Translations under genes and position numbers: made by a program | Source of the DNA: an uncultured Gemmatimonadales bacterium | Lineage (GTDB): Bacteria; Gemmatimonadota; Gemmatimonadetes; Gemmatimonadales; Gemmatimonadaceae | Reading direction: 5' to 3' | DNA length: 64,000 nucleotides | Assembly: GCA_963707505.1 (NCBI GenBank) | Contig: CAVPQB010000004.1 | Coordinates: 1,344,001 to 1,408,000, forward strand | Notes under the pieces: generated by a model | Seen by the model: only the letters and a program-made list of their open reading frames with translations | Database searches by the model: none | What the model was told of the DNA's origin: nothing | Shown here: piece by piece, positions 34,958 through 58,176 of the stretch | Layout of the letters: each line of letters starts with the position of its first letter | How positions within the stretch are numbered: position 1 is the stretch's first letter

Positions 34958-36195
34958 ACCTGTCCGGATCTGCAGTCTTGATGATGGTGCGCGCAAACTG
35001 ACCATCGGGTCCGGTCGCCGCAAGGTCTGTCTCGATTGGCGGCTGCAGAAGATTACCACGTCCGTCGCTCACTACTACCACGCGCGGCCTCGACAACATC
35101 TCGGGATTCGGATTTGCGGCAAGCACGACCGCCAGCTCGAACGTGTCGAGCACGACGAGCGTTCCGGACGGGTAGATCCCGAGCAGCGTTATGAACGCCT
35201 TCACTACAACCGGATCGAGCCCGCGGCGTGGATTGTCACGCATCTCCTGCAGCACCGCTGACGGTGGATACGGCTTGGTCTGATATGAGCGCCTGCTCGT
35301 TGCACGTCATACGCGTCCGCCACCGCTCGATCCTGCTCGTCATCGCAATGGATCGCGGACGAATCACGCGAGGATAACCGGACAGGTCGCGGCGCATGTG
35401 ATGCTCGTGCGCGCTCACCATCGCACGATATGGAAGCTCCTGTTGCCCGCGCAGCTGAAACAGAGTGAGCATCCCCAGCCATGGATGCGCCGTGATGCGC
35501 CGCCAGTCGTCCTCGTCCAGCGCGGTGGACTTCTGGAGCAGGTCGGTCGGAACGCGCGACTTGCCGATGTCGTGCATCAGCGCGGCGACACCGAGCTCGT
35601 AGAGCTGCAGCTTCGTCATCCCAATTCGCTTGCCAAGAGCCACAGCAAAGATGCAGACGTTGACGGAGTGCGTGTACGTGTACTCGTCGTACTCACGGAG
35701 AGTCGTAAGTCCGATCAGCGACGCCTCTTCCGTCAACACCTCGTCCACGATGGTCTGCACTGCTCGCTTGATCTTCCGCGCGCTCGGCACGCGGCCCATG
35801 CGAACAGAGTTGATCACGTCCTTGGTGAGCGCGACCGACTGGGCATACGTACGCCGCGCCGCAGCCTTGGCGACCTCACGCTCCTCGATCTCTTCCTCCT
35901 CATCCGCGTGGGCGACTGCCTCGAACGCGTCCACTCCCGCGGCGCGCAAGCGGGTGACAAGCTCGTCCGCATCGCCCTGGCCGGTGGCGCCGACTGTCGC
36001 CAGCAATGTGAGCAGCGAGAACCATTCGCGTGGCGTCGCTTCACGCACCACACGCAGCGACCCGACACCAGCTGATCGAAACAGGTCCAGCACGCGACCG
36101 AAGCTTCCGGCATAATTGCTGAGATCCAGGCGCAAGCGCGTGCCGTTTACGAAGATGAACTCGCCGTGCACGCGCAGCTCGAGCTCGGAATCCAC
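34926..36195 (-). CDS. HD-GYP domain protein, 5'-truncated at junction and frameshifted
   Basis: YTHSVNV, HDIGK, HEHH..SGYP, LGIYPSGTLV. Confidence 0.85.
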
Positions 36196-36218
36196 GCTCC
36201 TGCATTCCGACGCTGTGG

Positions 36219-37544
36219 ATGCGCACCGCCGACATGCCCACGACCGACACGCGGGCGTACCGCGGCGGCAGCATCATCGCCGCCGTCGCGGCCGGGCTGG
36301 CGGTGTCGGTGAAACTGAACCTGCTGGCTCCGGTGGGGGCACTTACGCTCGCCGCGATCGCGTTGACCCCCCGCGGCCGGCGCGGGAGCGCGACCGGGTG
36401 GTGGATCGGGGGGCTGGTCCTCGCCGGTGGTTACTGGTATGCCCGTAACCTCATCGCGATCGGGAACCCGCTCCCGTGGTTCAGCTTCGGCGTACTGCCG
36501 ACACCTCACCCGCCGCCGCTGCAGCAGGGCAACTACTACTCCCTGGCCGACTACGCGACCTATCCCCGGATCCTCCGCCACTGGCTGATTCCGGCGTTGA
36601 ACATGAACCTCGGGCCGTGGTGGCCGGCGTTGGTCGCCGCCGCCGTGGTCGGTCCTCTCGTGTGTCTCTTCTCCACGCGCGACCGAGTGATCCTGGCGGC
36701 GGCTCTGATCGCCCTCGCCTCCCTGGTCGCCTACACCTTGACCCCGGTCACGGCGTGCGGGCCCTGGGGACATCCCTACTGCTTGATGTACTCCATACGG
36801 TACGCAGCTCCCGCACTGACGCTGGCGCTGGCCGTCACGCCGCTGGTCCTGCTGTTCAGGAGCCAGCTTGGCAGCTCGGCGGCGGCGGCCGGACTCACGA
36901 CGCTGTTCGTGGCCACGGTGGCCCTGCGCCGCCTATGGACGCCGCACTACAACCTGGGCGGAGCTGCCGCCGCCGTGGTCCTAGTCCTCGTGGTGGCGGT
37001 GATCGTGGTCCTCAGACCGTGGTCGCTGATCCCGCTCCGGCGCCCGCTCGTGCGCGCCACCGCCGCGACGCTGGCTCTCTCGCTCGTGCTGGGCGGGGTC
37101 GCACTGGGCTACTCGGGGACGCGGGATTACCTGAGGCACCGATATACCGACAAGTCCGGGCGGGTCGCCGTTTACAAGGTGTGGCGCTGGGCTCGGGGTC
37201 TGCACCACGCGCAAATCGCCCTGGTGGGCAGCTTCGGCTTCTTCTTCGGCTATCCCCTCTGGGGTCTCGACGATTCCAATCGCGTCGCGTACATGGGCCA
37301 GCGCGGTCCCCATGGCTCGTTCCGGCCCATCAACAGCTGTCGGGCCTGGCGCACGGCGCTGAACCGGGGGCACTACCAGTACGTGATCACCACCGCGCGC
37401 GCGATCACCTTCACCACGCGGCTCGTGCACTCGCCGGAGGTCGACTGGACCCGGACCGACCCCGCGGCGAGGCTGGTGCTCTCCCCGAGCTGGGCGATCC
37501 AGGTCTTCCGGCTCACCGGGCCACTCCACCCGGATCGCTGCTAA
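36219..37544 (+). CDS. Multipass membrane protein (possibly GT-C glycosyltransferase-like), 5'-incomplete
   Basis: AGLAVSVKLN, WYARN..GNP, many TM segments; begins at the junction. Confidence 0.6.
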   Translation: MRTADMPTTDTRAYRGGSIIAAVAAGLAVSVKLNLLAPVGALTLAAIALTPRGRRGSATGWWIGGLVLAGGYWYARNLIAIGNPLPWFSFGVLPTPHPPPLQQGNYYSLADYATYPRILRHWLIPALNMNLGPWWPALVAAAVVGPLVCLFSTRDRVILAAALIALASLVAYTLTPVTACGPWGHPYCLMYSIRYAAPALTLALAVTPLVLLFRSQLGSSAAAAGLTTLFVATVALRRLWTPHYNLGGAAAAVVLVLVVAVIVVLRPWSLIPLRRPLVRATAATLALSLVLGGVALGYSGTRDYLRHRYTDKSGRVAVYKVWRWARGLHHAQIALVGSFGFFFGYPLWGLDDSNRVAYMGQRGPHGSFRPINSCRAWRTALNRGHYQYVITTARAITFTTRLVHSPEVDWTRTDPAARLVLSPSWAIQVFRLTGPLHPDRC

Positions 37545-49908: not shown

Positions 49909-50636
49909 GGGACCACGCTACCGAAGACAGCGCCGCCCGACAAAGAGCCGCACGGCAGCTGGGCGACTCCGAGAGCGCCGACCAACCGTTGTCCCTCACG
50001 AAGCTCCCTGTCTCCTCCGTGGGGGGTGATGGCGCGAGTACCGCAGCCACGAAAGCACCGGTCGCGTCGCGCTGGACTTGGCCTCCGAGCGGCAGTCCTC
50101 CTTCGGGGCAACGAGCGAGAAGAGCGGCAGTCAGCGGCTGACGCCCCGGCTGGCGACGAAGGGGGAGCGCTCGCCGATCGCCGGTCCGAGCGTCTGCTTG
50201 CTCGCCAACGGCTAGCACCGCTGCGTCGCGAAGTTGCGCTTGGTCGCCGAAGCGATGCCGAGCTGCGCGAGGCTCTGAGACGAAAGCGATCATCACAGTG
50301 TCCTCCAAGTGATGTACGCCGATGAGCCATGCGGCGGCCCCAGCGGTGATCGCCTTCACGCGATTGCGAGGGCGCGGTTGCTGACGCGCCCGGTCGCCTT
50401 CTGCATGCCGTCTGCCCTGGCAACTTCTTCAGGCCGGAGCAGGATCGGCGGGGTGCCGGCGTCCGCGCGTGGGAGACGGTCGGCGAGTCCGTTCAGGTGT
50501 GCGCCGCAGCTCGACAGGAGGTCTCCGGCCGTAGCGCGGGCAGGCACCTCGTGCCGGGCGACGATCTGCGTTGGGGGACCGATGCAGCTGGTCGGTTGCG
50601 TGGTTTGCGCGGGCGAGGCGTATGTTGCTAGCGACG

Positions 50637-51781
50637 ATGGTGAGTGGTCAGCCCGAGGCAGGTGAGCTGCTGGGTGCGTCGTTGCCGCATCTGGTGCCCG
50701 AACGGGTCGTCGAGGTCGCGTCGGCGCAGGCGGGCTGCCCGGTCGCGGCGTATGTGCTGGATCTGGATGGGTCGTTCGCTCTGCGTTTGGCCGGCGATGT
50801 GGAGCGGTTTCCCGAGCGGATCCGTGCGCCGGTCGGTGTCGGCCCGGAGATCATTCCCGAGGCTATGCCGCAGTTGCGGGGGCTGGTGATCGATCGCGTC
50901 GGACCGAGCACGCTGTGGCCGTTGGTGGTTCGCGATCGCGTGATGGGCTTTCTGCTGGCTCGCGACCGGCCGGCGGTTGATCTGGAGCCATTTGCGGGCC
51001 AGGCCGCGTTGGCGCTGGAGTTGGCGTCTGGCTACACCGACGCGTTGCATGCCGTCCGTCGGCGCAAGGACACTCAGCCCGCTGCCGAGATTCAGCAGAA
51101 CCTGTTGCCGCCGCGGCTGGCCCGTGTGGACCGGGCCGACGTCGCCGGGGGTGTGCTGCCGGGCTATGACGTCGGCGGCGACTTCTTTGATTACGCCGCC
51201 AACGCGGACGGCTTGTGGCTGGTCGTCGCTGACGCGACCGGAAAGGGCAATCCGGCCGCGGCGCTGTCTTCGTTGGCGATCGGGGCGCTGCGCGCCGCTC
51301 GCCGTGCCGGCGCTGGTCTGCAGGAAGCCGCGCGGCTGGTCGACGAGGCGATCCTGACGCTCGATACGCCGCTGTACCTGACCGCGGTGCTGGGATCCTG
51401 GGATCCCCACACGTATCGGCTGCGCTGGATCAACTGCGGCCATCCCACGCCGCTCGTCCTGCGCGCCGATGGGCGGATCGAAGAGCTCGACGGCGAGCGC
51501 ACCTATCCGCTGGGCATGCGCTTCGCCGAGCGCGTGTTCCCGGTCCTCAGCGCTGAGGTGGGCCCGGAGACCGCCTCTTGCTGTACTCCGACGGGGTCAG
51601 CGAGCGCCGCACCACAGACGGCGGCCGCATCGGCGAGACGGGCCTGCGTGCGGTTCTGGCCGAGCTGGGTACCCGGTCGGCCGCGATGACGGTACGCGGC
51701 TTGCAAGACGCGGTGATAGACGCCTCCCGTGAACCGCTGCGCGACGACGCCACGATGCTGGTGATCGCGCCCCACGACTGA
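50637..51781 (+). CDS. SpoIIE/RsbU-like PP2C phosphatase, frameshift near 51570
   Basis: EIQQNLLP, VGGDFFD, VADATGKG, NCGHP, LYSDG, RDDATM. Confidence 0.87.
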
Positions 51782-51847
51782 CAACCCAACCGGTCCCAGC
51801 CCGATGCGACGCGGCTAGCCGGTCGTCATCGAGGGTAGCTTCCGATA

Positions 51848-52205
51848 GTGCGCGAGGAGACACGTGAGCCGCGAACAGTCATGTGCGACGACGTCGCGGT
51901 CGTCACGGTCAGCGGCGAGCTCGATCTCGCGCTGTGCATCAAGCTCGCCCCCGAGCTCAATGCCGCGGTGCGCTCCACCGCGCGAGCGGTCGTCATCGAT
52001 CTCGAGGACGTCTCCCTGGTCGATTCCTCGGGTATCGCGCTGCTGCTAAATGCCTTCCGCCATCTAGACCACGCCGGGCGCCAGCTCGCGATCGCCTGCC
52101 CGCATGGGATCGCCGCGCCGCGCGTTCGAGCTGACAGCCCTCGATCGCCAGCTGCCGATGCACGAGACCCGCCGAGATGCGCTGGCTGCCGTACGCGTCA
52201 GCTAA
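51848..52205 (+). CDS. STAS anti-anti-sigma factor (RsbV-like), frameshift near 52110
   Basis: SGELDL, IDLEDVSLVDSSG; tail RRAFELTALD in another frame. Confidence 0.83.
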
Positions 52206-53418
52206 CCGTCTTTGGGTGAGGACAGCCACCGGCGCCAGGCTGGCGGGCGGGATCTAATCGAGAGCGCATCGCTCAGGTGCGTCGTCTAGGTGTAGTTCCT
52301 GACCACGTTGTTCCGGTCTGAGGGGTAAGCCATCCGGTGCTCCTTGGAGGCTGACAGGTGCTCAAGCCAGTCAGTCCCAAGGAGGACACCGGATGAAGAT
52401 GCACGCTAACGCTCGGCTCAGTCTGAAGGGCCGCGAGCTGCTGGTCGATCGCGTCCAGGACGCGGGGTGGTCGCTGGTCGCGGCCGCCGAGGCGGCCGGG
52501 ATCAGTGACCGCACCGCGCGCAAGTGGCTGGCCCGCCACCGGGCTGAAGGGCGCGAGGGGCTGCTGGATCGCTCCTCAGCCCCGACGGTGGTCGCCAATC
52601 GCACCGAGGAGCGCACGGTCGAGGTCATCGCTGCGCTGAGGCGGCTGCGCCTGACCGGCGCGGAGATCGCCGAGTGCCTGGATATGGCGCTCTCGACCGT
52701 GTCGGGGATCCTGACCCGGATCGGGCTGGGGCGGCTGGGGCGGCTGGGCTTGGAGCCCGCGCAGCGCTATGAGCGAGCTCGCCCGGTGAGCTGATCCACA
52801 TCGACGTCAAGAAGCTCGGCCCGATCCACAACGGCGCTGGGCACCGCTTCACCGGCCATCCCGGCCAGCGCCGGGCCGCGGGCAGCCGCACCGACGCCGA
52901 AGGCGTCCGCCGCAACCGCAGCGGCTGGGAGTACGTGCACGTCGCCATCGACGACGCCACCCGCCTGGCCTACGTCGCAGTTCTCGCCAACGAGAAAGCG
53001 CCCACCGCCATCGGATTCCTGCGCCGCGCCGTTCAGCACTTCGCCAGCTACGGCATCACCACCGAGCGACTGATCACCGATAACGGCAGCGCCTACCGCT
53101 CCACCGTCCACGCCATCGCCTGCCGCGCCCTCAAGATCCGCCACCTCCGCACCCGGCCCTACCGACCCCAGACCAACGGCAAAGCCGAACGATTCATCCG
53201 CACCCTGCTCGGCGGCTGGGCCTACGGCGCGATCTACCGCTCAAGCGCCGAGCGCAACGCCGCCCTCGCCGGCTGGCTTGACTTCTACGGATGAAAGTCA
53301 AGTGGCAGGAGCGGTCTGTTGGTGGGATCCTTTCGGGTGGTGCGGGTGACTGACGAAGCGAAGTGCAGGTATCAGGGGCTTGTGGCCTGCCGCGCGGCTT
53401 TGCCCTTCGAGGGCCTTT

Positions 53419-54652
53419 CTAATGCGCGCCCCGGTGTCGCGCCCGCACCACCGTTCGGTCGCTGTCCAGTCGGCGACGAGCCGGCGATAGGCCGTCTCGG
53501 CCTGGCCGGCGAGCTCTTTCTCGAGGCGACGCTGATCGACGCTGGCAAATGTGCGTCCCGCGCTCGCGAGGCGTTTTCCTTGTTGGCGTGGCGCGCCGAG
53601 CATGCAGCTCATAGCGCCGCAGCTTCTCGCGGTGCAGCGAGGGTCGGCCAAACGCGTATCCCTCGCCGCGGCGCAGCATGTGAAACGCGATGACCACGAG
53701 CTTGCGGGCGACCGCGACCGTGGCGATGTTCGCGCCGCGGCGGGCGGCGACCCGCTGGTGGAACGCGCGCAGCGGGCCGGTGGTTCTCGCGGCGTGCCAC
53801 GCCGCTTCGACCAGCAGCCCCCGAACCGGCCCGGGGCCTTGTTTGCTGATCCGGCCGTGCTTGGCGGGCTCGTTACCGGATTGACTGCACCCGCGGGCTC
53901 AGCCCGAGATAGCCGACCAGGTGATCGGCGGTCGGGAACCGGCGCACATCACCGATCGCGGCCAGCATCGCGGTCGCGGTCACGCCGCTGACTCCCGGGA
54001 GGGTCATCAGCCGGCGGATGTCCTCGCTGGCGAGCACCTGCTTGGCGATCTCGATGTCAACCAGCTCGATCTCTGCGGCTAGGAAATCGATCTGGCGCAG
54101 GCACGCATCGACTGTCTGCTGCTCATCGGTCGGCAGCAGCCTGCACTGGTCAGAGAGCCAGATACGTCCCTTGACCCCGAACACGTCTGTCATCGGTGGC
54201 CGGCTCTTGAGCTGGCGTTGGAGAACGGCGTGCACCTGGTTCTTCTCACGCACCCGCTGACGCACGAGGTGCATTCGCCGGGAGATCAGGCGCCGACGGA
54301 CCCGCGTGGGCTCATCAGGCGTCCACACCTCCGCCAGGAAGCCTGCCGCCAGCAGACGAGCCAACAGCGCCGCGTCGATCTTGTCGGTCTTGGCTCGCAG
54401 ACCGGTGATCCTCTTCACCGACTTCGGGTCGGCCAGCACCACCTGCGCGACGTGCGGCTCGACGATCCGGGCGATCGCCAAGGCGTTCGCCGTGGCCTCC
54501 ATCGCGACCACATCGTCCGGCGCCAGGCTGCACGCGAACACCTCCAGCTCTGACGGGGTGCTCGCCACCTGACCGGCGAAGCGCAACCTGCCGTCCTCGA
54601 CGACCGCGACCTCGCAGAAGTCACGATGGACATCTACTCCGATGAACCTCAC
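53419..54652 (-). CDS. IS110 recombinase A, frameshifts near 53885 and 53605
   Basis: IGVDVH, AMEAT, KTDKIDA (DEDD); LPGVS, GLSPRV.QSG, LVEAA, AVARKL. Confidence 0.88.
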
Positions 54653-54669
54653 CACCACCTCCTTCAGCT

Positions 54670-54880
54670 CGAAGAAGCAAGGTGGAGACGCGGCGGGCAA
54701 AACGACAACTACGGATCCGTGCTCGAAGCACACCCGGGCAAGTCGCGGGGGCGGCCAACTACAAATTGCGGGCTCTCAGCCCATAGAACTAACGGCCTGC
54801 CCAGCCAACGTTCTCCCGGAACCCCCGTCCCGGAACGCCGCCAACCTACGACGGGCCCCGGACACAACGGGCTCCAGGAC
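54670..54880 (-). ncRNA. Putative bridge RNA of IS110-A
   Basis: AGUUCUA and UUGUAG match target actt-CT-acaa; UGCCC and AUCCGUAG match donor tgccc-CT-acggat; each pair flanks a hairpin; ends approximate. Confidence 0.68.
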
Positions 54881-55059
54881 GCAGTTTCATGCCCCTACAA
54901 TCGCCGCCGACCACACGGCGCCCTCAGCCACAAGCCACCCATCGACCGCCTCAACGAACGGAACAACCTCCTCGGGTCCTACAGCTGATATGGAGAGTCG
55001 TTTGTCAACCCGGGCGCGGTGATTTGTCGCTGGTGGCGCCGTGGGGGTGTGGGTGTGGT

Positions 55060-55260
55060 CGGCTGGGTGGGTGGCGGTCCGGCTTGCTGTGCGCGACGCG
55101 CGGTCAGGCTGATATTCGCGGGTTGGGACCGCAGGACCATGTTCGTCGTGGGGAGCCGCTGTCTAGGATCGGGCGTGGCCGGCCGGTGAGGGCGGGTTGC
55201 TCATAGCTGTCTCGCGGGTTCCCCGCGCGTGCCGGGCCGCCACCGACCCAGCCGACGGGA
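55060..55260 (-). ncRNA. Putative bridge/seek RNA of IS110-B
   Basis: ACAGCUA and CCUAG match target acag-CT-agg; AUAUCAG is complementary to donor CT-gatat; ends approximate. Confidence 0.68.
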
Positions 55261-55274
55261 TGAGGGACTCGGGG

Positions 55275-56357
55275 TTACTCGATTTGGCTGATCGCCCAGC
55301 AGAACCCGGCGAGCTCGCGGGCGGCGGCGACGGCGATGATCGTGCGGCGCTTGGCGCGGGCCTCCAGACGGGTCCAGGTGCGATGCAGTCGCCGTTGGGC
55401 TGACCAGGCGATCGCGATCGCCTCGGGTGGCTGGCCGTCCTGGCGCTCGGTGAGTGCCTTGCCGATCGCGGGGCGCTTGCGGTAGTGCCAGGCGGCTTCG
55501 ACCAGCAGCCGCCGGGCGTGCCCAGAACCGGTCTTGGTGATCGACCCCAGCCGTCGCTGCTGCCCGGTGGTGTTCTCGCACGGGACTAGGCCGACGTAGT
55601 TCATCAGCTGCTCGGCCTTCGCGAACCGTTCGAAGTCGCCGATCTCTGAGCACAGCCCGACCGCGGTGAGCGTGTCGACCCCGCGCAGGCATCGCAGCCG
55701 CCCGACCTGCGTGGCCCACGGCGAGCTCGGGAGCAGCGCGAGGATCTCGCGCTCTAACGCGTCGCGGCGGTGACAGAGCGCGTCGATCGCTCCCTGCACG
55801 TCGAGCAGCGTCGATTGCGCGGCCGGCCACTGCAGCGTGATCGTCGCCAGCCAGGCTCGGTGGCGGTCTGTCCACGCCTTCCCGTCGTCAAACCGGATCC
55901 CGTGACGCAACAGCAGCTTGGAGAGCCGATGCCGGGAGCGCATCAGATCCACCCGAACCTGCTCGCGGGCGCGGACCAGGTCGCGCAGCGCCTCCTCCTC
56001 GGGCCCGGGCACCCTGACCGGGTGAAGCTTGCCGGCCAACAACAACCGGACCAGATGCTCGGCGTCACGCCGATCGGTCTTGACCCGATCCCCCGACGCC
56101 CGCGGGATCTTGCTCGGCGCCGCGACCACGCACTCCACGCCGCGCCGCGCGAGCTCCCGCGCGAGCCCGTACCCGGTCGGGCCGGCCTCATACGCGACCC
56201 GCACCGGCCGCGGCAATCCCGCGCAGAACCCGGCCGCCCCACCAGCATCACCGCTCATCGCAAACCGCGACAGCTCCCCGGTCTCCGCGTCCAGCACCGC
56301 CGCGACGATCTTCGCCGCGTGCACGTCCAAGCCGACGACGGTCCTAGCCTTCGCCAT
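55275..56357 (-). CDS. IS110 recombinase B, intact ORF
   Basis: VGLDVH, YEAGPTG, KTDRRDA, GLVPCENTTG, ITKTG, LVEAAW, AAARELA. Confidence 0.95.
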   Translation of the reverse strand: MAKARTVVGLDVHAAKIVAAVLDAETGELSRFAMSGDAGGAAGFCAGLPRPVRVAYEAGPTGYGLARELARRGVECVVAAPSKIPRASGDRVKTDRRDAEHLVRLLLAGKLHPVRVPGPEEEALRDLVRAREQVRVDLMRSRHRLSKLLLRHGIRFDDGKAWTDRHRAWLATITLQWPAAQSTLLDVQGAIDALCHRRDALEREILALLPSSPWATQVGRLRCLRGVDTLTAVGLCSEIGDFERFAKAEQLMNYVGLVPCENTTGQQRRLGSITKTGSGHARRLLVEAAWHYRKRPAIGKALTERQDGQPPEAIAIAWSAQRRLHRTWTRLEARAKRRTIIAVAAARELAGFCWAISQIE

Positions 56358-56580
56358 GGCTGGTTCCTCCTATGCGATTGTGGGCCGCCGCGCGGGTACC
56401 AGCCGCGCGGCATAACTTCACCCCCACCGACGACGTGGGGGGAACCGGCCTCTTCTATCTCTCAGGCCGGACGGACCAACAATCCATATTGTCTAGGCGA
56501 GCCGGGGCAGCAGGTCGGCATGTCTCTGCTCCCTCCCGTTCGTCGACTCGCCGTCGGGCAGGTTGCGCGGACCCCAGTTG

Positions 56581-56988
56581 CTACGCGTTTACGGGTTCGG
56601 GCGCATCGACCAAGTCCGCATCTGGGGCGAGAACGAAGATCTCGACCAGCCGGTCCGGGTCAAACAGGATTTGGCTGTGGTAGCTGACGATCTTGCGCTC
56701 GAGGACGTCCTCGACGCGGCGGATGAGTTCGGGGGCGATCACGGCTTGGAAGCGGAGACGGTATGCGCGTACGGCTTCGTGCTCTCCTCCGCGGACCATC
56801 GTTTCCTCATCGCGGGTCATGCCGCCGCTCATCGTGCAGAACACGTATTCGTCGCAGAAGTAGGTCTTGGCGTGGGTCGGGCCGCGTCCGTAGAGGTCCT
56901 TCATCGTGCGCACGACGGCTTGTGAGACACGCGCTTGCAGGGACTGCGCCTCTGAGGGGCTTCCCTCGGTGACTTCGTCATCGGCCAT
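56581..56988 (-). CDS. DUF2294/MpsC-family protein
   Basis: VSQAVVRTMKDLYGRGPTHAKTY...EIFVL. Confidence 0.85.
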   Translation of the reverse strand: MADDEVTEGSPSEAQSLQARVSQAVVRTMKDLYGRGPTHAKTYFCDEYVFCTMSGGMTRDEETMVRGGEHEAVRAYRLRFQAVIAPELIRRVEDVLERKIVSYHSQILFDPDRLVEIFVLAPDADLVDAPEPVNA

Positions 56989-57062
56989 GTGCGCGCAGAC
57001 TAGCTCAGGCAGCGAGCTCAGCAGAGATGGGCCGAGTCCAAAGGATTCAGGGGCGAACGCAC

Positions 57063-57088
57063 GTTTGGGCGGACCTAGCGCGGGGTAG
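57063..57088 (+). promoter_or_regulatory. SigB/SigF-like promoter
   Basis: GTTT-N16-GGGTAG upstream of the 57222-58799 genes. Confidence 0.62.
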
Positions 57089-57221
57089 ACTCAGCTATGA
57101 GCGAGCCGACGTCAGCTTGCGCCGCTCCTGCAGTATCAGACGGGAACGATCCCACCGGGCGAAACGCCGTTGGAGCGATCGGTCCAGTCGCCAGCCTCAA
57201 TTCTCACTTTAGGAGTGTCGC

Positions 57222-57542
57222 ATGAGCATTACCACCCCCGCTGAGGGACGCCGTTTCGACCGTGCCGACCGGGACCGTTCGGCCGCTGAACATTCAACTC
57301 GGCGTCTGTCGACCGAGACAAAGGCCGCGTTCAAGACGACCGAGTTCATCGCGTATCTCGTCGTACTCGCCGGAATCCTGATCGCCGGAGCGGTGGCGAA
57401 GGCCAGCCACTATGCCGGTGCCCACGATCCCTTCCGAGCCGACCGTGTGTGGCTGTACGCCACGATTCTGACGGTCGGGTACATGATCAGCCGCGGGCTC
57501 GCGAAGGCCGGCACCCGCGAGCGCTACGACGAGCAGTCGTAA
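57222..57542 (+). CDS. Small two-TM hypothetical protein
   Basis: RBS aggag; ETKAAFKTTEF...GYMISRGLAK. Confidence 0.75.
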   Translation: MSITTPAEGRRFDRADRDRSAAEHSTRRLSTETKAAFKTTEFIAYLVVLAGILIAGAVAKASHYAGAHDPFRADRVWLYATILTVGYMISRGLAKAGTRERYDEQS

Positions 57543-57648
57543 TTCGGACCGTCGCCTCCCGCTGGGCCCGGCCGGCACCCATTTGGGTGCCGTTCGGGTC
57601 CGCCAGGGCTACTCGCAGCGGCCCCTTGGCCGACTGCCCTCCCAATTA

Positions 57649-58176
57649 GTGAAAGTGAATGACAAGTTGAGTGGTCGAGAGAATTCCGAGCGGACCGCCG
57701 GTGGTCTGGTCGGCAAAATTGCCGGTAGGACAAAAGAAGCTGTCGGGTCCGCGCTGGGCCGCGACGACCTGGCGCGCGAGGGGCGTTTGCAGCAGGCGCA
57801 GGTTGACGCCGAGGCGCAGGCGGCTCGTGCGGCGGCCGAAGCGAACCACCGCGCGACGGAAGCGTCGCTCCAGGCGGAGAAGACCGAGGCTCAGCTTGAG
57901 TACGACCGCCTCCAGAATGCCGTAGCGGCCCGCGAGCGTGAGCAGCGGATCGAGGGTGAGCGCGACGACGCCGAGCGTCAGGCCGAGTCCCAGGCGCGCC
58001 GTGAGCAGGCGGCTGCCGAGAGCCAGCGCGACGCGCACGAATCCGCAGCTGAGAACACTGAGCAGCGCGCCGTGGGTGAGCGCGTGGCTGCGGCCGAACA
58101 GGCGATCGGGTTGGAGCAGCAGGCACGCCAAGCCGAGACAGAGGCGGCAACTATCGATCCCCAGGAGCAGCGATGA
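57649..58176 (+). CDS. CsbD-like domain plus coiled-coil protein
   Basis: KIAGRTKEAVGSALGRDDLAREGRLQQ then an Ala/Glu/Gln/Arg helix. Confidence 0.7.
   Translation: MKVNDKLSGRENSERTAGGLVGKIAGRTKEAVGSALGRDDLAREGRLQQAQVDAEAQAARAAAEANHRATEASLQAEKTEAQLEYDRLQNAVAAREREQRIEGERDDAERQAESQARREQAAAESQRDAHESAAENTEQRAVGERVAAAEQAIGLEQQARQAETEAATIDPQEQR

Follow-up and report, generated by a model that had tools for sequence, protein, structure and literature searches.

The window analysed here, a stretch of 64,000 nucleotides (nt) on contig CAVPQB010000004.1 of an assembly assigned to an uncultured Gemmatimonadales bacterium (GCA_963707505.1), contains a nest of insertion sequences (IS): an IS481-family element whose transposase gene is split by an IS110-family element, here called IS110a, and a second IS110-family element, IS110b, lodged in the target duplication at the right end of the IS481. 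The explanation that we favour, at a probability of roughly 0.8, is that IS110a homed by a matching predicted RNA guide to the Tyr-Asn codons of a DDE transposase gene, as its lineage likely does in many such genes, and that the unrelated IS110b carries a short predicted guide that fits the IS481 duplication. This explanation draws on features legible in the DNA itself, namely the ends, the TA and CT cores, the covariation of guides with flanks, the hosts of relatives, and independent insertion into different hosts. We regard the nested structure as real and its mechanism as a known one, the target of IS110a as new and well supported, and targeting by IS110b as unproven.

The nest and its IS481 host

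A first-pass annotation of this DNA had proposed a nested double IS110 insertion in an IS481 region, and this is borne out: excising both inserts in silico restores an open frame that ends ...WLDFYNRRRPHGALSHKPPIDRLNERNNLLGSYS-stop, the same C-terminus as in intact relatives of 328 amino acids (aa), and the families are confirmed by Pfam and NCBIfam. The two inserts are also different elements, as had been stated, since their recombinases, both of which match PF01548 and PF02371 and pass the NCBIfam IS110 model NF033542 (179.9 and 228.3 bits, cut-off 140), are 30% identical. The description of an IS481 invaded twice is correct for the inner insert, which lies in the gene, but the outer one lies outside the IS481, in its right target duplication. 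Similarly, the CT core assigned to both inserts holds for IS110b (AG in its own orientation) but not for IS110a, whose junction repeat is CTAC (53285-53288 and 54895-54898); relatives share a fixed layout of core, 5 nt, ATG repeat ... CAT repeat, 3 nt and core, and the core of IS110a is therefore TA, with TC in other lineages. Both inserts display the traits of the IS110 family, that is, a repeated short core without a true target duplication, and a non-coding end with predicted guides that match target and donor.

Membership of the host in the IS481 family is indicated by Pfam, which identifies a DDE transposase on both pieces; the 5' part matches LZ_Tnp_IS481, rve and rve_3 (rve_3 ending at model position 53), and an intact relative that is 94% identical (P0002) scores 292 bits with NF033577 (cut-off 224). 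The terminal inverted repeats begin with TGT at 52291 and end with ACA at 54981-54983, and the empty element measures 1083 bp. Its transposase stop is now a TGA (54986-54988) formed with the end of IS110b, which replaces TAG. Excision of 54987-56494 yields GCTAGG on the right against TCTAGG on the left, a match at 5/6 positions as originally reported, and the mismatched G is the base predicted by the IS110b guide; among relatives, such duplication pairs are exact in L039, L065 and L090 and inexact in L060 and L105. An exact 7-bp repeat, GTCTAGG, around the nest was considered as the duplication of a composite transposon and rejected, since in relatives the T preceding CT is part of the end of IS110b.

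IS110a and the Tyr-Asn codons of DDE transposases

Among 79 loci related to IS110a, from the best 80 of 273 confirmed, the upstream non-coding end consists of a constant scaffold and two variable stretches flanking a small hairpin, of which the 5' stretch is complementary to the core and right flank and the 3' stretch equals the left flank and core. Over 33 distinct guide pairs (57 two-ended elements), the left guide agrees with its own flank at 3.48/4 nt (permuted, 1.86 +/- 0.16) and the right guide at 2.67/4 nt (permuted, 1.28 +/- 0.15); neither score was reached in 5000 permutations, a count that treats kin as independent although they are not. The left-donor guide follows the change of core from TA to TC in relatives. 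In the window the guides read GCAAT(T)TG-TA-GAAC and the site GCGATTG-TA-GAAG: the predicted bridge RNA corresponds to the Tyr-Asn codons, read in antisense, of the YNxxRxH motif of DDE transposases, and IS110a splits the Tyr codon region of F-Y-N in its host. Another candidate for the right-target guide, at 54740-54744, was discarded because it does not vary between lineages whose flanks differ; the guide that covaries is on the 5' side of the hairpin. By analogy with IS621 and ISEc21, the non-coding end would be transcribed into the bridge RNA, and the recombinase would join a circular copy of the element to its target at the 2-nt core, with no duplication of the core. Insertion would remove the last 28 residues of the transposase, likely inactivating the host enzyme, and would leave both IS481 ends intact.

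Besides the window, the Tyr-Asn group comprises 35 loci, 33 recognised by their guide and two by flank and by a quick tree of relatives. Three lack a usable flank; of the remaining 32, four share a single genome, and two other genomes supply a pair each. A DDE transposase is interrupted at 22 of the 32, in 21 cases by Pfam rve, rve_2 or rve_3 (E <= 0.01) and in one by tblastn to IS481, and these 22 insertions are always antisense and always at the Tyr-Asn codons; the upstream rve_3 matches of the relatives' hosts stop by model position 52, the residue preceding Tyr. The hosts are IS481-type, IS3-type (HTH_21 plus rve) and other integrase-core genes. For comparison, five carrier genomes contain 48 rve_3 matches versus 2064 RTTGTAG sites, at most 2.3% of which lie in transposases. 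The view that one IS serves as a landing pad for another is thus well supported for IS110a, with the correction that the target is a motif found in IS481, IS3 and other integrase-core transposases, and not IS481 itself.

The genome labelled G202 contains seven left ends with one guide, all of them (7/7) at Y-N-x-x-R-x-H. Six of these IS110a copies are 99.2-99.9% identical, their hosts are 48-71% identical over 90 nt, and the seventh element diverges past its left end. Because near-identical copies occupy different transposase genes, they are best read as the product of repeated independent homing and not of hitch-hiking. In most right-guide variants of the group the codon read before Tyr is that of Phe, His or Trp. 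This match, together with the recency of the G202 copies, speaks for a guide adjusted to the transposase motif.

Several points weigh against this interpretation. The guide and homing evidence for IS110a is at the level of sequence, and the set covers the top 80 of 273 loci; five of the 32 loci are assigned by a YNxxRxH-like motif alone, and another five lie outside a recognisable transposase (a DNA methylase, DsrE, one other host gene and two unclear cases). Although the predicted RNA helices are 95% paired in 14 sequences, two-sided changes are seen in just 2 of 19 helix pairs, with a covariation score not above that of slid controls, and the fold is for that reason plausible, not proven; single-sequence folding gave a result no better than shuffles (z -0.64), and an Rfam scan of 52200-56600 returned no match. 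The right guide fits one of the six G202 sites with a readable right flank, and base pairing there would therefore extend over only about 6-7 nt. Moreover, 20 of 24 sampled background sites in G202 are Tyr-Asn codons of host genes and two are in transposases; were all such host-gene insertions lost, transposases would account for about half of the sites left, and six out of six would then carry a p of about 0.016.

Such figures lend themselves to a possible, though less probable, account in which a short guide is coupled with survival bias: IS110a would insert wherever an RTTGTAG-like site occurs, and the insertions that survive would be those in transposase genes, which are dispensable. Loss of host-gene insertions could supply much of the enrichment, because most of the background sites fall in ordinary genes; three relatives do occupy host genes, and the right guide is often mismatched. 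This account sits poorly with the six G202 copies, whose near-identity marks them as recent and which are nevertheless all in transposases, with the retention of the guide on the YNxxRxH motif among proteins as little as about 60% identical, and with a variable guide part that tracks the residue before Tyr. The two accounts are partly compatible, and part of the transposase enrichment probably does derive from the loss of host-gene insertions. Guide-matched homing remains our preferred explanation, under which the IS110a lineage would likely spread by knocking out other jumping genes. A more ambitious proposal, which we consider unlikely, is that a long-lived IS110 lineage is a generalist predator of DDE transposons that holds its guide to the single codon pair common to IS481, IS3 and other integrase-core families, and that chooses genes more sharply than 6-10 paired bases allow, by way of distal Arg-x-His-x-Leu codons or transposase-bound DNA; if true, the lineage would be a naturally occurring, programmable brake on the IS load of soil Actinomycetota.

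About ten sister lineages appear to have been re-aimed on the same RNA scaffold, towards codons for the catalytic Asp, sites that resemble tRNA, stop codons in tandem genes and IS ends, and they form a ready set for separating base pairing from selection in IS110 site choice. In one sister lineage all loci (7/7) lie at the aspartate codon of T-D-N-G/A, that is, at catalytic D-N-G codons. In a second (L069, L071, L073, L075, L076, L078, L086, L234) the guide aims at the stop codon between tandem genes whose products begin M-S-Q-E-N-V and which we take from their flanks to be SnoaL-like; in a third (L101, L103, L232) the guide matches a tRNA-like sequence over 9 nt plus 7 nt, presumably the antisense of a tRNA-Phe anticodon arm; and a fourth (L061, L068, L077, L084, L107, L206, L208, L216) is aimed at Y-T-T codons, in what we assume to be the end of IS256-type elements. 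A relative of IS110a in another genome (L033, in G205) lies at Y-N-x-x-R-P-H of a transposase-like gene that is matched by no Pfam or NCBIfam model and that presumably encodes an IS1-type protein.

IS110b and the right end of the IS481

IS110b is inserted one base beyond the IS481 end, at the CT/AG of the right target duplication, where it would leave the host protein unchanged. The element has 288 nt of non-coding DNA downstream of its gene and 137 nt upstream, in agreement with the long downstream region of IS1111 members; its subterminal repeat is about 7 bp, the spacing of core + 5 nt and 3 nt holds, and its downstream end (55050-55265) folds better than shuffles (z = -4.2). Among 50 relatives with a right end, 37 could be read and carry 22 versions of the right guide, which agrees with the flank at 3.73/4 nt (permuted, 1.32 +/- 0.21; 22 distinct guides). 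A right guide at 55139-55143, together with the treatment of G54984 as an error, was rejected, as the covarying guide predicts that G. Nearly all of the elements L110-L189 (79-93% protein identity) differ in the 4-5 nt of their right guide, which suits the flank of the element concerned, and the relatives of IS110b would accordingly exemplify unusually fast natural re-aiming.

It is conceivable, if doubtful, that the IS110b lineage is also programmed for IS481 ends, as IS4321 reportedly is for Tn21 ends. The window guide, CCT-AG-CTGT, finds nine contiguous nt at the IS481 end, and of ten other elements with this guide or flank three are at IS481 ends (by tblastn) and one likely so, versus 3/30 background sites. 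The event also seems to have been repeated in G202, where an IS481-type host (L305, at G202:C9:152500-158055, listed also as L066) bears an insert of the IS110a type at Tyr-Asn and, at its stop codon, one of the IS110b type with the window guide; since this host is doubly invaded at the window's two positions, the double hit recurs. Insertion of IS110b also leaves the host protein intact. The excess at IS481 ends has, however, a Fisher p of 0.05-0.15, and a preference is unproven. The 22 different right guides also count against such programming, as do the finding of only two IS481 matches among 44 right and 52 left flanks, a further two among about 40 additional elements, and the rarity of CTAGCTGT (57 sites in five genomes), as a result of which IS481 ends would make up a sizeable share by default. 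The original suggestion that IS110b targets IS481 has largely to be abandoned, its relatives being mostly in unrelated DNA and equipped with many guides. IS110b is likely a generalist, and the fit of its present guide to the CTAG-based end of the IS481 would be fortuitous.

The same annotation had entertained hitch-hiking. In the form considered here, the IS110 elements would ride in or beside the IS481 as a composite moved by its transposase, and this now appears very unlikely. Both IS481 ends are intact around IS110a, and locus L039, in another genome, presents the same pairing at the same codon with other flanks, a perfect 6-bp duplication and a host end 94% identical to the IS481 3' part, albeit without IS110b. 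At L039, however, the IS110a is 94.5% identical, the closest among the matches listed, and the IS481 host 84% (84.3% over its 5' part), the near-identical G202 copies are in unrelated hosts, and IS110b lies outside the IS481 end.

The locus and its assembly

Table 1. Positions in the window of the nested elements and their predicted parts.
Feature	Position	Strand	Basis
IS481 left target duplication, TCTAGG	52285..52290	.	sequence
IS481 5' part: left inverted repeat with TGT end, transposase (start 52393) as far as Phe-Tyr	52291..53286	+	Pfam, inverted repeat
IS110a, inner IS110-family element, 1610 bp, antisense to host gene	53287..54896	-	relatives' ends, empty allele
IS110a TA core	53286-53287 and 54896-54897
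IS110a short subterminal repeats (6 bp)	53291-53296 and 54885-54890
IS110a DEDD recombinase gene, 3' limit approximate	53298..54649	-	PF01548, PF02371, NF033542
IS110a predicted donor-binding loop	54690..54752	-
IS110a left-donor guide	54709-54716	-	follows core and donor changes in relatives
IS110a right-donor guide candidate	near 54736-54740	-	by eye only
IS110a predicted target-binding loop	54759..54789	-	guide-flank covariation
IS110a predicted guide for left target + core, one extra U	54759-54769	-
IS110a small hairpin between target guides	54770-54782	-
IS110a predicted guide for core + right target	54784-54789	-
IS481 3' part: final codons, beginning with Tyr-Asn, and right inverted repeat with ACA end	54897..54983	+	frame check
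Right target duplication, first half (G + CT core)	54984..54986	.	sequence, host ends
IS110b, outer IS110-family element, 1508 bp, IS1111-like layout	54987..56494	-	ends common to relatives
IS110b core CT (AG in own orientation)			
IS110b predicted bridge RNA loops	55109..55211	-	covariation, fold
IS110b predicted left-donor guide	55109-55115		
IS110b predicted left-target guide	55163-55170		
IS110b predicted right-target guide	55204-55211		
IS110b DEDD recombinase gene, 360 aa, intact	55275..56357	-	
Right target duplication, remainder AGG	56495..56497	.	sequence

IS481, IS110a and IS110b are each single-copy in the assembly (G000), and a search of 200 genomes of its family gave short weak matches only, which fits a chimeric contig tail. 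The final 58 kb of the contig (C4) have 67% GC versus 62% elsewhere and carry Solirubrobacterales-like genes. The tail starts in the middle of a gene whose intact continuation sits on another contig (C5), and beyond window position 36,220 no match was found in 20 relatives; the probable join is at 36195-36215 (about 1,380,200 on C4), where an HD-GYP-like gene is broken. Judging from the closest kin of the IS that it carries, this tail probably represents mis-joined DNA from a Solirubrobacteraceae-like organism. The nest is surrounded by stress-regulon-like genes (50571-52219 and 56581-58176), among them a SpoIIE-type phosphatase and a STAS gene, both frameshifted here, an MpsC/DUF2294 gene and a gene for a microaggregate-binding-like protein.

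Contigs from four public soil runs, all from a single study that may cover the source campaign, were compared with the window. The frameshift near 52781 in the IS481 gene, across which the frame is intact in the relative P0001, is corrected in contigs of three of the four runs, and those of the inner IS110 are corrected in one (53457), two (53605) and all four (53887); the four are for this reason probably assembly errors. An empty allele, of the kind that the first-pass annotation had proposed to look for, exists, in that contigs of 3/4 runs hold a form lacking IS110a (joint 53284 to 54895, 1610 letters skipped, with four letters that fit both sides), although these may be other IS481 copies rather than excision products. 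One contig crosses the right junction of IS110b, reaching 48 letters into the element; among the contig pieces listed, none spans the left junction of either insert and none contains a circle joint, as expected of a circular intermediate, and none of the RNA runs on record is listed as holding this stretch. That the nesting is an artefact of repeat mis-joining in an error-prone tail, itself probably mis-joined near 36,210 and carrying frameshift errors, is highly improbable, given that both junction pairs obey the family end rules and guides, that P0001, from a 30.7-kb contig, ends at the same junction (though it may be from the same sample), that L039 has the same insertion in another genome, and that the right junction of IS110b is crossed by a contig.

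Comparison with known IS110 systems

IS110 elements aimed at other IS have already been published, as exemplified by ISEc21 and IS4321. IS4321 and IS5075, of the IS1111 group, reportedly have a fixed target inside the Tn21 terminal repeat (Partridge and Hall 2003). IS110b is comparable, being an IS1111-type element at the end of another mobile element, but differs in that it lies just outside the IS481 end and that its relatives carry many guides. The host resembles IS481-family elements of the ISLxc2 type, for which the available text of PMC2516522 describes an NCTAGN duplication that supplies the stop codon: it has TGT...ACA ends, a length of about 1.1 kb, a DDE transposase of about 330 aa and a stop-supplying duplication, with the differences that the duplication in the window matches at 5/6 positions and the gene is interrupted.

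Members of IS1111 target Tn21 ends and attC sites, according to the available text of PMC11187229, and have subterminal inverted repeats of 11-13 bp placed 7 and 3 bp from the ends (7-17 bp in Durrant, PMC11208160). IS110a shares with them 7/3-bp terminal extensions and a top-strand guide that precedes the bottom-strand guide, an order stated for IS1111 and not for ISEc21 (PMC11187229). Its guides are nevertheless upstream of the gene, unlike the long downstream non-coding region of the IS1111 group, and it is therefore not filed as IS1111, although rare IS1111 cases with an upstream non-coding region, such as ISMtsp17, are on record (PMC11187229).

The bridge mechanism was described for IS621 (Durrant et al. 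2024, PMC11208160). With IS621 and ISCro4 the window elements have in common a DEDD recombinase, a core of 2 nt, a non-coding end with distinct loops for target and donor, and a target of about 11 nt (PMC11208160). They differ in weak protein similarity (for IS110b, E 2e-5 and 5e-4 over the C-terminal part; structures 8wt6 and 9t56), and from IS621 in their TA and AG cores, in having the right guide before the left around a small hairpin, and in their targets, which in IS621 are REP repeats (PMC11208160). Insertion of IS621 can be driven by one-sided matches, as far as the available text of bioRxiv 10.64898/2026.08.31.748434 goes, and this would fit the loose right guide of IS110a.

A literature search, with most subscription papers and supplements outside its range, found no description of an IS110 aimed at Tyr-Asn codons or at IS481, and the available text of bioRxiv 10.64898/2026.08.14.744561 contains nothing on IS481; such a case may be present in Supplementary Fig. 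11 of the ISEc21 study or among the target logos of about 300 ISfinder elements. IS110a would illustrate clearly how, in nature, an RNA guide can stay fixed on a protein motif by way of the codons that encode it, in hosts from several transposon families, and the elements together would be a source of compact bridge recombinases whose cores are TA, TC and AG. The closest parallel is ISEc21, an IS110-family element that inserts around the second catalytic Asp codons of certain IS3-family transposases (Siddiquee et al. 2024, PMC11187229, in its available text). Both are RNA-guided, have an upstream non-coding region and enter conserved DDE transposase codons of another IS without duplication, and the D-N-G sister lineage enters the same kind of site as ISEc21. 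The likeness is one of targeting and layout. IS110a differs in placing its top-strand guide first and in targeting the Tyr-Asn of YNxxRxH, in IS481, IS3 and other integrase-core hosts.

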